64,000 nt of DNA, from the IMG/VR virus record IMGVR_UViG_3300005805_000042; one strand, given 5' to 3'. Position 1 is the stretch's first letter. Every line of letters begins with the position of its first letter. Made by a program: the position numbers and the translations under genes. Below are positions 5,917 through 9,576 of the stretch, piece after piece. A model generated the notes under the pieces. That model saw only the letters and a program-made list of their open reading frames with translations, had not been told where the DNA came from and searched no databases. This stretch comes from a virus.

Positions 5917-5990
5917 AGGTCTCGGTCAGATTCGAACTGACGAATAACGCTTTTGCAGAGCGCCCCCTTGAGCCACTTGGGTACAAGACC
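5917..5990 (-). tRNA. tRNA-Cys(GCA)
   Basis: Cloverleaf GGTCTTG/CGAGACC; anticodon loop CT-GCA-AA; TTCGAAT T-loop; U73 discriminator. Confidence 0.92.
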
Positions 5991-5996
5991 TTTTTA

Positions 5997-6071
5997 GGTG
6001 ATTAATGGGTTTCGAACCTCCGACCTCCTAAACCACAATCAGGTGCTCAAACCAACTGAGCTATAATCACC
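5997..6071 (-). tRNA. tRNA-His(GTG) with mismatched T-stem
   Basis: G-1 and C73 present; anticodon arm CCTGA-TT-GTG-GT-TTAGG; T-stem GGAGG/CCCAT has 2 mismatches. Confidence 0.8.
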
Positions 6072-6087
6072 GTATATTTACAAATAT

Positions 6088-6663
6088 ATGTATGTATCTC
6101 ATAAATACCAAATTCAATGGTGGTTTCCAATGCACGTTGGTAGTACGGTAACAAGATTTTTATTAGAGGATATAGGTTTTGTACCACATTGGGGACAACA
6201 CCCTATAGACCCTGAATGTCAATATGATGTATACCTAAACATTAGAAATCCTTATACTTTAACAATATCGAATTGGAAAAATAACCAACATAAACTTTTT
6301 GGGTCACCCTTTTCGGATTTCGTAAAAAAATATAAAGGTGAATATCCATTTTATCACAATCCACAGGAAATGGATTATGTTGAGCATAGTAAAAATAAAA
6401 AAATAAAAAAAATAATTCGTCAAGAAAACTTATATGATGACTTAACATCAATTGAATTCATAAATGGGAACGAAAATTTATTAGAAAAAAAACTTATCGA
6501 TATCAAAAATAAAGTTAAAGTTTATAGAGGTGAAAAAATAAAAAAACTGGTGGATGGAAATCTTTATGATGAAGATTTAGCTAACATTATTTATTATAAC
6601 AGAAGAAAATTTTTTGAGTTTGGTGGTTACGAAAAAGATTCTTGGATAAATTTAAAATATTAA
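6088..6663 (+). CDS. sulfotransferase-like protein (Sulfotransfer_2-like)
   Basis: WFPMHVGST resembles the 5'-PSB loop; IRNPY resembles the 3'-PB motif. Confidence 0.6.
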   Translation: MYVSHKYQIQWWFPMHVGSTVTRFLLEDIGFVPHWGQHPIDPECQYDVYLNIRNPYTLTISNWKNNQHKLFGSPFSDFVKKYKGEYPFYHNPQEMDYVEHSKNKKIKKIIRQENLYDDLTSIEFINGNENLLEKKLIDIKNKVKVYRGEKIKKLVDGNLYDEDLANIIYYNRRKFFEFGGYEKDSWINLKY

Positions 6664-6669
6664 AAAGGC

Positions 6670-6770
6670 GTCGGGGTAGGAATCCCACCTACAATCGAGA
6701 ACAACCTAAAATAGGTCTTAATGTTCTCCATCCAAAAATGAATGTGCCTTTGTCAATTCAGCCACCCGAC
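6670..6770 (-). ncRNA. tRNA-like RNA with extended variable arm and non-canonical T-loop
   Basis: GTCGGG/CCCGAC acceptor; Leu/Ser-like D arm GGCTGAATTGACAAAGGC; GAGAAC/GTTCTC plus ACCTA/TAGGT long arm; GTAGG-TGGGATT-CCTAC. Confidence 0.65.
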
Positions 6771-6780
6771 TAACCTATTT

Positions 6781-7323
6781 TTAATTTTTACCTGCACATT
6801 CAGTAACAACAAATCGTTCACCAAATAATACGGGTGTTACCTCATGAAATAAACTACCTTTATAAAGAATTGCCATCCCCTTTTCTTTGGGTGTTATCAC
6901 ATCGTTGATAATTAACTCTCCACCTTTAAAGTTATCATTTAACATCAATGTCATAACCCATTCTCTATTAAATGAGGGGATAAAATCCTTGTGTTTAGTG
7001 TGTTTACCACCCAAAGGATAATGAGTAAAATAATGTGGGAATTCCAAAATAAAATTTGTAAGAATACATCCAAAACATTTTGAAAAAATATCCGATAGAA
7101 AAGGTAAATCATTTTTTTGTATCCCAACAATATCAACAACTCTATACGGAGCATTTATTCTTGTAATAGATTTTGAGGTGGTGTCCCACCCATTTCTATC
7201 AATTTCAATGAAAGAATTAAAACTATTCCAGAAGTTTATAACACTTTGAATTTCATCATTAGAAATAACATTTCGGATTATTTTGAAATCACCATAGTCT
7301 TCTATATTTTTACAAATATCCAT
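6781..7323 (-). CDS. 2OG-Fe(II) oxygenase (prolyl-4-hydroxylase-like)
   Basis: HKD, FKGGEL and HEVTPVLFGER motifs. Confidence 0.85.
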   Translation of the reverse strand: MDICKNIEDYGDFKIIRNVISNDEIQSVINFWNSFNSFIEIDRNGWDTTSKSITRINAPYRVVDIVGIQKNDLPFLSDIFSKCFGCILTNFILEFPHYFTHYPLGGKHTKHKDFIPSFNREWVMTLMLNDNFKGGELIINDVITPKEKGMAILYKGSLFHEVTPVLFGERFVVTECAGKN

Positions 7324-7531
7324 TTGAAATTGTTTTGTAGAATAATAAATTAATTATTTTTTTTCTTCAATTTGAGACTCCATCAATTCAATTGCCTTTT
7401 TTAAGTGATTAACATAAAAAGGTATGTCAAATTTGTCTTCCTTCCCATATGATTTAACTGAATCTTGAACATATTTCAGTTCCCAAAGTATTTCATTTAC
7501 GGTTTCTTTTGTCATAATTTAATAATTTAAG

Positions 7532-7601
7532 TGGTCCGTGCGGGAATTTAACTCCCCACATCCGTTATCGGGCTATATTATAGCCGTTAAACGAACGGGC
7601 C
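7532..7601 (-). pseudogene. degenerate tRNA (Glu/Asp-like body)
   Basis: GGCCCGTTCGTTTAACGG...GGGAGTTAAATTCCCGCACGGACCA; acceptor and T arm recognisable, anticodon arm not. Confidence 0.55.
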
Positions 7602-7690
7602 TTTGGTTAATGATAAGAAATAGTTTCAAAGAAAGCTATTACCATCTTTTTTAAAAATAATTTAATTTTTCCCATATTAATAAGTATAGC

Positions 7691-7817
7691 AGTCAGGACA
7701 GGATTCGAACCTGTATTGTATTGTAAGTGAAAAACACCCATACATTTAGTATCGTAATTCATAACATACGACCTGTTCTTGTATAAATCTAAGCGTCTAC
7801 CATTCCGCCACCTGACT
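7691..7817 (-). ncRNA. tRNA-Leu-like scaffold with a roughly 75-80 nt structured central region
   Basis: AGTCAGG/CCTGACT acceptor; perfect GGCGGAATGGTAGACGC D arm; perfect ACAGG-TTCGAAT-CCTGT T arm; 127 nt total. Confidence 0.8.
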
Positions 7818-7825
7818 ATAATAAA

Positions 7826-8025: not shown

Positions 8026-8029
8026 TTTG

Positions 8030-8127
8030 TGGTGTGAGCGGGATTCGAACCACGCGGCACGGTCTTTTTCACGGACTTGCTCTACCATGGGAGTATCATA
8101 TGAGTACTCCACCTGAGCTACCACACC
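8030..8127 (-). tRNA. tRNA-Phe(GAA)-like with a hairpin inserted in the D-loop
   Basis: GGTGTGG/TCACACC acceptor; GCTC/GAGC D-stem enclosing GGAGTA-CTCATATGA-TACTCC; anticodon loop GT-GAA-AA; imperfect anticodon and T stems. Confidence 0.65.
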
Positions 8128-8134
8128 ATTTTTG

Positions 8135-8215
8135 TACCGGAAGAGGGACTCGAACCCCCACGCTAAAAAGCAGATGCTCCTAAGGCATCCGTGTCTACCA
8201 TTCCACCACACCGGC
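8135..8215 (-). tRNA. tRNA-Leu(TAG)
   Basis: GATGC-CT-TAG-GA-GCATC anticodon arm; long variable arm; GGTGGAATGGTAGACAC D arm. Confidence 0.9.
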
Positions 8216-8220
8216 ACTTA

Positions 8221-8369
8221 GTTGGTAGTAGTTGACTTTATCAGGAATCCCGCCTAACCCCCAAAAGAGGTATAGCTTCACACACCATTAGAGAGAAGGG
8301 TATATTCTTAGTGTGTACCCTTGCGATATGCTCTCCCATACTGTCAACTCACGCATTGTTACTACCAAC
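8221..8369 (-). ncRNA. unassigned 149-nt structured RNA candidate with possible pseudoknot
   Basis: 10-bp terminal helix GTTGGTAGTA/TACTACCAAC; GTTGAC/GTCAAC; GGGAGAG/TTCTCTC; AAGGGTA/TACCCTT; G-U pairs favour the minus strand. Confidence 0.65.
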
Positions 8370-8452
8370 CGTTATTTGTTTTTAACATTTCAAAGACCTT
8401 ATGTCTTACCAACACCACAAATATATGTCGACATTTTTATAAAACCAAATGT

Positions 8453-8941
8453 CTAAAAAACTTTTTCTGAATTTTGTTCAACCCAAGACAAACTTATAGA
8501 AACATGTTTAGAAGATTTTTTCTTAGATGACTCTATTTTGGTTTTAACAATTTCCAAAACCTTGTCAGTTGTACATTTCCAAATATTCTTACAAGTTAGA
8601 CCATCCTTTTTATCAAACAAGGCGAAAAAGAAAGCATCGTTTCTTTCGACTCTATGAAGGTTGTCTTCGTGGATTCTGTCAAGTTGAAAGGTCCCCCCCT
8701 CTTTACAAGATAGGTATTCGTACTTTTCTTTACCATCCTTAGAATATGCATCAGCACCATGTTTTGTCTTATGACATTTATGGTCGAGAATTTCAGACAC
8801 CATCCATTCTTTAATAAATCCTGGTGTTAACAGGTCTTGTTCGAACCCATTTTCTTTTTTATACAGGTTTAAAGTCCCCACTAGTAGAAGGAGGGGGTTT
8901 TCCTGTTGTCTTATTAAATTTAGCAATTCTTCTTGGGTCAT
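8453..8941 (-). CDS. PvuII-like PD-(D/E)xK endonuclease-fold protein
   Basis: 162 aa; GADAYSKDGKEKYEYLS, FFFALF and HVSISLSWVEQNSEKVF parallel the PvuII segments GNDAVDNAGQEYELKS, WIFAIY and NPKIPVKYVMEHGTKIY (recalled from memory). Confidence 0.55.
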   Translation of the reverse strand: MTQEELLNLIRQQENPLLLLVGTLNLYKKENGFEQDLLTPGFIKEWMVSEILDHKCHKTKHGADAYSKDGKEKYEYLSCKEGGTFQLDRIHEDNLHRVERNDAFFFALFDKKDGLTCKNIWKCTTDKVLEIVKTKIESSKKKSSKHVSISLSWVEQNSEKVF

Positions 8942-8953
8942 AAGGGTATATGT

Positions 8954-9030
8954 TGGTGGGCCTGGCAGGAATCGAACCCGCGACCTCGAAATTATGAGTT
9001 TCTCGCTCTAACCGTCTGAGCTACAGGCCC
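8954..9030 (-). tRNA. tRNA(CAT), probably Ile2 (lysidine type) rather than Met
   Basis: GGGCCTG/CAGGCCC acceptor with encoded ACCA; loop CT-CAT-AA; Ile-like body with C4-G69 and C5-G68. Confidence 0.85.
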
Positions 9031-9191
9031 CTGATGTTTGTCAATTATAGAAAATCAATTTCATATTGTCAAATCGTTCACCTTGAAAGAGTCGAATTTC
9101 CGACATTTTTTATCTGAGTTAAAAGTGTTTAGTAAACTTCTTTTTGTTACAATAAACCTCATTAGTTTATTGAACAATTTTTAGTTTATTG

Positions 9192-9263
9192 TGACCCCGA
9201 GGCGATTCGAACGCCCGACTCGTGTGTTAAGACACACTGCTCTACCATCTGAGCTACGGGGTC
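9192..9263 (-). tRNA. tRNA-Lys(CTT)-like with a 6-nt anticodon loop
   Basis: Perfect acceptor GACCCCG/CGGGGTC and good D and T arms; GTGTG-TCTTAA-CACAC. Confidence 0.7.
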
Positions 9264-9346
9264 AGATTATTCGGTCAAAACTGAACTGTTTAAAGTCCAA
9301 AATCTTAAAAAATGAACGATAAAACAAACCAAAATGACCGAAAAAT

Positions 9347-9576
9347 TTAACAAAGTATAACCAGGATTCTGTATTTAATCTATCATTAGTCTATTTGCCC
9401 CCACCTTACCCGACCAGCTCACCGTCGTGGGTTGTTTTGGGTTGCATCCTCGGTGGTAATGACGATATAAGGATGTGGACTTATAACTGACCATTATAAG
9501 TTTGTTCCCTTATATCTCCCACCTTAAGCTGTGATGTCCTGAGTTTCCTCTCCGTAGAGCGACAGAACTTTGTTAA
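9347..9576 (-). ncRNA. rnpB: compact RNase P RNA (about 230 nt)
   Basis: P1 TTAACAAAGT/ACTTTGTTAA; P2 TCTGTC/GATAGA; CR-I GAGGAAACTCAGG; CR-IV-like GCAA and CAAATAG; CR-V ACAGAATCCTGGTTAT complementary to CR-I for P4. Confidence 0.88.

Follow-up and report, generated by a model that had tools for sequence, protein, structure and literature searches.

The 64,000-nucleotide (nt) stretch analysed here, taken from the IMG/VR virus record IMGVR_UViG_3300005805_000042 and called the window hereafter, holds an island in which transfer RNA (tRNA) genes are interleaved with other structured RNAs (positions 5916-9576). Among these are a miniature ribonuclease P (RNase P) RNA and two multi-helix RNAs which we refer to as E (150 nt) and H (184 nt). 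With a probability of about 0.6, we interpret this island as the mosaic tRNA array of an uncultured freshwater jumbo phage, in which independent RNA modules are interleaved and from which E and H would be released by tRNA-punctuated processing. A preliminary description of the window had instead proposed a self-processing polycistron, in which the phage RNase P and the tRNAs liberate the other RNAs. The inventory given there, consisting of tRNAs, two tRNA-shaped RNAs with inserts, two multi-helix RNAs and an RNase P RNA, was borne out. Its count of six to seven tRNAs compares with five ARAGORN calls, and only four of the tRNA-shaped genes are canonical. Similarly, the two structured RNAs described as unknown are real, conserved and covarying, but the one thought to be 200 nt long measures 184 nt and contains the Rfam motif freshwater-1. 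The Rfam cmscan search suggested in that description returned no match for E, freshwater-1 for the core of H, and a match below the gathering score for the RNase P RNA. Conservation and covariation in related loci, also suggested there, were found in all three RNAs.

RNA genes were called by ARAGORN and Rfam over 5916-9576, at gathering and relaxed thresholds, and every one of them lies on the minus strand. Protein-coding sequence, in four open reading frames (ORFs), makes up about half of the island (~1.8 kb of 3.66 kb). The record nearest to the window is a fragment of 117 kb, whose completeness was put at 49%. Relatives of the window (related loci are designated below by numbers such as L014) are contigs of 155-293 kb with 25-48 tRNA genes each, and are thus attributable to jumbo phages.

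Two structured RNAs bordered by tRNA genes

Copies of E were retrieved by means of a 17-mer from its core, present in 72 viral contigs, and of a second motif, present in more than 120 viral contigs, among which 39 new loci were confirmed by model R2. This model and the corresponding alignment A7 comprise 53 distinct sequences. Altogether, more than 80 distinct sequences were fetched and the family has more than 100 copies. The isolated E stretch has no match in Rfam at an E-value of 10 or below. Its architecture combines two outer helices (P1 and P2), a hairpin and a crossing GCG/CGC helix, and the loop sequence of the hairpin, GGAGAG, is paired to CUCUCU further downstream. Pairing is observed in 97.4% of the cells of A7, versus 28-51% when the pairing is slid. 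Covariation is strong in the two outer helices and in the inner hairpin, and one pair of the crossing helix is C-G in 45 sequences, U-A in five and A-U in one. The GGAGAG/CUCUCU pseudoknot shows a few compensatory changes. In addition, about 50 positions are invariant across 49 E sequences.

E is tightly associated with tRNA genes. A tRNA on the same strand starts at most 3 nt from the 3' end of the E model in 60 of the 71 copies, and a tRNA ends at most 3 nt from its 5' end in 40 of them, the commonest setting being tRNA-Arg(ACG)-E-tRNA-Arg(UCU).

The limits of H were set by its clean presence or absence, as exactly positions 7834-8017 are missing in L011 and L015. Within these limits, the freshwater-1 model (RF02979) is matched over its full length (1-62) at 7863-7924, with 74.3 bits for a gathering score of 72. 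For H, 37 sequences were aligned with MAFFT, not fitted to a model, and a consensus was derived with RNAalifold. This consensus has 41 pairs, 26 of which show compensatory changes, and covariation extends to the closing helix and to three helices that lie beyond the Rfam motif. Whereas the freshwater-1 model consists of two central hairpins, H thus adds four further covarying helices and is linked to tRNAs in phage contigs. H starts 2-12 nt after a tRNA in 46 of 52 copies, and is followed by another tRNA within 9-17 nt in 19 of the 52.

As these spacer RNAs abut tRNA genes, tRNA end-processing is a natural route for their release. E and H would be co-transcribed with the neighbouring tRNAs, and their 3' side would probably be freed by the RNase P cut at the 5' end of the downstream tRNA, the other side probably being trimmed by 3' processing of the upstream tRNA. 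Host RNase P would suffice for such tRNA-punctuated maturation. The same arrangement, namely a nearly obligatory position between or after tRNAs whose identity varies, would also be expected if E and H acted in cis, as structured spacers which insulate pre-tRNA folding, order processing or bear entry sites for host endonucleases. We consider a role in cis to be highly improbable, as the invariant nucleotides of E and its two pseudoknots exceed the needs of an insulator, and as many H copies come last, behind one tRNA, so that no gene follows which they could insulate.

Several known systems can be compared with this arrangement. The tRNA cluster of phage T4 encodes stable species 1 and 2 RNAs (rnaC and rnaD), which are matured by the tRNA-processing machinery. 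Like them, E and H are non-tRNA RNAs encoded among phage tRNAs, a likeness that concerns the arrangement only. Unlike species 1 and 2, E and H are pseudoknotted or multi-helix and are not tRNA-shaped. T4 also differs from the window in being wholly reliant on host RNase P. Its multimeric pre-tRNAs (dimers) are cut by this host enzyme, as stated in a 2024 RNase P review (PMC11143913). When E, H and the whole island were compared by blastn with 50,697 phage records, no match was found beyond tRNAs, and no cultured phage with E, H or the RNase P clade of the window was detected by blastn. GOLLD and ROOL provide another point of comparison: as described in PMC5737381, these structured RNAs often lie beside tRNAs and in (pro)phages, and are possibly co-transcribed. 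They differ from the RNAs described here in being 500-800 nt long, they are in Rfam, and Rfam searches gave no GOLLD or ROOL match in the island.

A miniature RNase P RNA

RNase P RNA is viewed as a housekeeping ribozyme of cells. No publication on an RNase P RNA encoded by a phage came up in our literature search, and phages figure only as sources of tRNA substrates in the 2024 review (PMC11143913). In the island, the bacterial type A model RF00010 (RNaseP_bact_a) matches positions 9343-9576 with 35.9 bits (E-value ~1e-8 to 1e-9), model positions 1-367 being spanned in 234 nt. The bacterial RNase P model is the best match in Rfam clan competition, and the RNase P RNAs of relatives score 40-66 bits with RF00010. 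These relatives were retrieved from IMG/VR by a 17-mer and a 15-mer, which correspond to the 5' and 3' strands of helix P4, respectively. Filtering by covariance model R1, built from eight of them, yielded 21 distinct sequences of 184-281 nt. Alignment A4 was fitted to R1, and two pseudoknots were added by hand.

The RNA comprises helices P1, P2, P4, P5, P7 and P15-P17, the P6 pseudoknot, and a P3 helix which is a stub of 4 base pairs (bp), along with the consensus sequences of J18/2 and J2/4. It thus resembles bacterial type A RNase P RNA (rnpB, E. coli M1 RNA) in P1-P5, the bulged U of P4, P6, P15-P17 with the L15 GGU motif, J18/2 and J2/4. It differs from it in its length (230 nt versus ~370-400 nt), in its P3 stub, in the absence of P18 and of the P7-P14 specificity domain with CR-II and CR-III, and in being encoded by a phage whose relatives' contigs yielded no rnpA. 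P7 and a single hairpin (RNA positions 61-113) are left in place of the specificity domain. In L002, L007 and L020, the region between the P7 strands is down to a 10-16-nt loop.

Pairing is kept in 95.4% of the cells of A4, versus 35-46% when partners are slid, and two-sided changes are found at 44 of the 68 pairs. Helices P1, P2, P5, P7, P15, P16, P17 and P6 covary, and the P3 stub does not. P6, although outside the model, shows at one of its pairs U-A in six sequences and C-G in one, in place of A-U. The P4 pseudoknot (CR-I/CR-V), formed by RNA positions 32-39 with 212-218 and with U35 as the bulge, is 100% paired in 20 sequences. On direct reading, the bulged U is kept, and two of the pairs depart from the bacterial consensus through compensatory changes. 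Finally, AAGGU, with the L15 GGU that pairs with the 3' CCA of tRNAs, is present in 12 of the 17 sequences of alignment A2, namely in the window clade and nearer relatives, the five sequences that diverge most having an altered form.

Judging from its helices and conserved sequences, the RNA is a type A derivative cut down to the catalytic domain. The type T RNase P RNA of Thermoproteaceae (RF02357) is a natural example of one that functions although it has no specificity domain. Type T and engineered RNAs reduced to the catalytic domain likewise have no specificity domain, but these are archaeal and cellular or laboratory constructs, whereas the window RNA is viral and of bacterial type A descent. 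For type A, work quoted in PMC11143913 (reference 84 there) indicates that the catalytic domain does not need the specificity domain for activity. We also considered, and rejected, a specificity domain supplied in trans by H or E: cmscan of both RNAs gave no RNase P match at an E-value of 10 or below, L011 has an RNase P RNA without H, and E is found without RNase P.

A gene for the protein RnpA (PF00825) was not found in the contigs of five relatives, two of which are at least 90% complete. The phage RNA would most likely pair with host RnpA, and so provide extra capacity for cleaving pre-tRNA 5' ends during infection. The failure to find RnpA in these contigs would also be expected if the RNA were not a catalyst but a sponge, either for host RnpA or for a host defence directed at RNase P, and the RNA indeed lacks the domain which reads the tRNA elbow. 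A sponge seems hardly probable to us, however, because the catalytic apparatus (P4 with its bulged U, J18/2, J2/4, L15 GGU and P6) is kept under covariation, which a sponge would not need, and because the RNA goes with the large tRNA arrays of these phages.

Other loci give examples of RNase P RNAs next to tRNAs. The L014 copy (6515-6792, plus strand), which has a P3 expansion of ~55 nt, is separated by 6 nt from a normal tRNA-Lys(UUU) downstream, and those of L020 and L023 start directly after a tRNA 3' end. RNase P cleavage would thus shape these RNAs, including the 3' end of the RNase P RNA itself. In the L025 copy (10974-11167, minus strand), the 5' strands of P1 and P2 are not recognisable near the core, and this copy may be truncated or carry a large P3 insertion.

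Transcription and exchange of the modules

As all RNA genes are on one strand and the spacer RNAs abut tRNAs, the island could be a single minus-strand polycistron, headed by a phage RNase P dedicated to liberating non-tRNA RNAs such as decoys or translation modulators, in other words a self-contained system. In support of the preliminary description, E and H are genuine and abut tRNAs within a few nt across dozens of phage contigs; moreover, RNase P and E share a locus in the window clade (L002, L003, L005, L008, L011-L014 and L025). Four types of evidence argue against a single unit. First, a sigma-70-type promoter matching the consensus lies inside the island, and both of its hexamers are kept in L014 amid diverged flanks, which suggests that host sigma-70 transcribes part of the array. 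A consensus scan for intrinsic terminators gave nothing convincing at element ends, the sole minus-strand match inside the island falling in the anticodon arm of tRNA-Leu. Second, the RNA genes are interrupted by one opposite-strand and three same-strand ORFs.

Third, modules are gained, lost and reshuffled. L016 lacks 7546-8028 and 6074-6663, L011 lacks H and nothing else around it, and the order of elements differs in L003 and L005. Fourth, E does not depend on the presence of a detectable RNase P RNA. In four jumbo phage genomes with E, 93-100% complete, neither RF00010 nor model R1 detected an RNase P RNA. Likewise, no R1 match was obtained in 100 E- or H-bearing loci (836 kb), and no E was found in 100 other loci, including the RNase P carriers L001, L004, L007 and L009. 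For these negative results, it should be noted that the RF00010 pipeline recovers three of five known RNase P carriers and that R1 recovers all carriers. Many H copies, in addition, are in contigs whose fetched stretch holds just one or two tRNAs.

The internal promoter, the interrupting ORFs, the gain and loss of modules and the occurrence of E without RNase P thus point to independent modules which share a tRNA array, and not to an obligate system. On this comparative basis, the island is to be read as several transcription units and not as one, and the spacer RNAs would not need the phage RNase P. We therefore regard a dedicated polycistron as quite unlikely.

Several points weigh against our interpretation of the array as a mosaic with tRNA-punctuated release. 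The RF00010 score of the window RNase P RNA lies far below the gathering score of 100. The P4 strands were the retrieval motif for the RNase P relatives, so that the invariance of P4 is partly by construction, and the alignments of E and of the RNase P RNA were fitted to models, which favours the modelled helices. A further helix of E, ACACAC/GUGUGU, is unproven: it was invariant in the first set of sequences, and members with CAAAC or CCCAC keep the partner unchanged. Finally, neither end of the window RNase P RNA is set by a tRNA, as it begins 3 nt after the stop codon of the ORF at 9580-10089 and is separated from the next tRNA by 83 nt. Given this start and the lack of a promoter-like site before it, its 5' end would need a cut, by which the RNA is probably excised from an mRNA.

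Altered tRNAs, neighbouring genes and biological meaning

The features of the island are listed in Table 1. A decoding-competent cloverleaf, with an anticodon stem of 5 bp and a 7-nt loop, was found in the Cys, His, Leu and Met tRNAs, and was not found in the RNAs at 9191-9263, 8030-8127, 7690-7817 and 6670-6772. The tRNA derivatives keep the acceptor and T arms, which are read by RNase P, their anticodon arms being altered or replaced.

Table 1. RNA genes, ORFs and other elements of the island, in the order of minus-strand transcription (aa, amino acids).
Feature	Position	Strand	Remarks
Miniature RNase P RNA, 230 nt	9347-9576	-	Rfam RF00010, model R1, alignment A4
Lys-like tRNA, anticodon CUU, 6-nt anticodon loop	9191-9263	-	ARAGORN tRNA-???; Rfam 51.6 bits; fold z -3.5
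tRNA-Val(UAC) remnant, anticodon arm deleted	9076-9128	-	Intact tRNA-Val at same place in L014 (7055-7128)
Sigma-70-type promoter, TTGACA-17-TATAAT	9044-9072	-	12/12 consensus; 7 nt upstream of tRNA-Met
tRNA-Met(CAU)	8954-9030	-	Canonical, CCA encoded; ARAGORN, Rfam 67.2 bits
162-aa ORF, no recognisable family	8453-8941	-	
Conserved intergenic element, ~70 nt, small hairpin, upstream of E	8373-8452	-	78-99% conserved in L003, L014, L016
E, 150-nt pseudoknotted RNA	8220-8370	-	Model R2, alignment A7; ends 4 nt before tRNA-Leu
tRNA-Leu(UAG)	8134-8215	-	Canonical type II; ARAGORN, Rfam
Phe(GAA)-like tRNA	8030-8127	-	Rfam tRNA 33.7 bits; 30 nt where model has 5
H, 184-nt multi-helix RNA	7834-8017	-	12 nt after Phe-like tRNA, 16 nt before next tRNA-like RNA
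tRNA-Leu 'chassis' RNA	7690-7817	-	Rfam tRNA 37.8 bits; 69 nt where model has 13
Weak tRNA-like fold (acceptor, T-like arm)	7532-7601	-	Rfam tRNA 16.1 bits, E-value 5; fold z -2.8
53-aa ORF	7354-7515	-	
180-aa 2OG-Fe(II) oxygenase ORF	6781-7323	-	PF13640 E-value 1.3e-8; phrog_61 E-value 7.5e-17
Second tRNA-like RNA, type II shape	6670-6772	-	Fold z -3.2; 87-93% conserved in L003, L005, L014, L016
191-aa ORF, opposite strand	6088-6663	+	Sub-threshold ART-PolyVal (ADP-ribosyltransferase) match, E-value 0.033
tRNA-His(GUG)	5996-6071	-	Canonical; ARAGORN, Rfam; 5 nt from tRNA-Cys
tRNA-Cys(GCA)	5916-5990	-	Canonical; ARAGORN, Rfam

The Lys-like tRNA has perfect acceptor, D and T arms, and its stems are intact in three diverged copies; in the relatives aligned to it, the gene is a tRNA-Lys(UUU) whose anticodon loop has the normal 7 nt. 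Shortened anticodon loops recur in phages of this group, namely in L270, L016 and the window (ARAGORN anticodons 'ta' and 'ctta'). In the Phe-like tRNA, a D-loop hairpin of ~25 nt is combined with an anticodon stem of 3-4 bp and a 9-nt anticodon loop. Compensatory changes affect the stem of this hairpin in L025 and L003. L002 carries a normal tRNA-Phe in place of the Phe-like one. The second tRNA-like RNA has a 4-6-nt anticodon loop, a variable arm of ~32 nt and a UGGGAUU T-loop, and its counterpart is located directly upstream of E in L003 and L005.

The tRNA-Leu chassis RNA also has perfect acceptor, D and T arms, and an insert of ~75 nt replaces its anticodon and variable arms. The fetched loci contain 36 exact copies of the 24-nt sequence formed by its T arm and acceptor 3' end (35 apart from the window copy), and the chassis copies have unrelated inserts, for a total length of 72-146 nt. 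In the 14-kb locus L220 (8051-11620, plus strand), nine tRNA-Leu chassis 3' ends are followed by an E copy and a tRNA-His, and these chassis copies have differing inserts wherever the 5' end is traceable.

Such odd tRNAs could be pseudogenes in a shrinking array, in which E and H would be selfish or neutral cassettes spread by recombination at tRNA ends. The tRNA-Val remnant and the absence of the Tyr, Asp and Asn tRNAs of L014 are consistent with decay, as is the weak fold at 7532-7601, which is poorly conserved (a single match of 72%, in L025) and is possibly a decayed tRNA. A hint of recombination also comes from the deletion junction of L016, which overlaps by 15 nt in the coordinates of the alignment, its ends reading as similar tRNA-like 3' ends. 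We nevertheless find this explanation very improbable. Compensatory changes are present in both spacer RNAs, in the RNase P RNA and in the hairpin carried by the D-loop of the Phe-like tRNA, the 6-nt-loop tRNA retains perfect stems in diverged copies, E has its invariant positions, and the chassis arms are identical among copies with differing inserts.

Among the protein genes, the 162-aa ORF has no sequence match in Pfam, PHROG or PDB, and a PvuII-like reading of it received no sequence support from the same searches, no search by fold having been made. The 191-aa plus-strand ORF is an indel: it is missing in L016, L017, L008 and L013, where the tRNA-like RNA directly abuts tRNA-His. The conserved element between the 162-aa ORF and E lies in a different context in L003, where it precedes another gene, and is possibly a promoter or leader, perhaps of phage type. 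Outside the island, tRNA-Ile(UAU) and tRNA-Leu(UAA) form another small cluster at 14651-14816 on the minus strand, 5 kb upstream, with ORFs in between. A 487-aa fusion (12909-14372, minus strand) combines an FkbM-type methyltransferase domain (E-value 5e-20) with a glycosyltransferase family 2-like region (below the Pfam cutoff), and is adjoined by a DUF6734 protein (10697-11635). Both are possibly phage genes for glycan or DNA modification.

Regarding the function of the released RNAs, our guess would be that E, H and the altered tRNAs serve as decoys for tRNA-directed defences or as translation modulators. A bolder view is that E, and perhaps H, represent a new class of functional RNA, either a ribozyme or a trans-acting binder of a component of translation or defence, which phages would conceal between tRNAs and which would thereby be matured by the tRNA machinery of the cell. 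In the window clade, such RNAs, the phage RNase P and the tRNA look-alikes would together equip the phage to take over the tRNA supply or to protect it against host defences that target tRNAs. We put this view forward tentatively and consider it unlikely.

E and H show that conserved structured RNAs reside in the tRNA arrays of phages. E, with its more than 100 copies, has no Rfam family, and freshwater-1, a published motif, represents about a third of the real RNA, H. Their invariant cores and pseudoknots make E and H good candidates for biochemistry, and the rule of flanking tRNAs offers a simple way to find further RNAs of this kind. Finally, a viral RNase P RNA cut down to the catalytic domain would be a natural test of the minimum of RNA with which the enzyme can manage, and of whether phages secure tRNA maturation for themselves.

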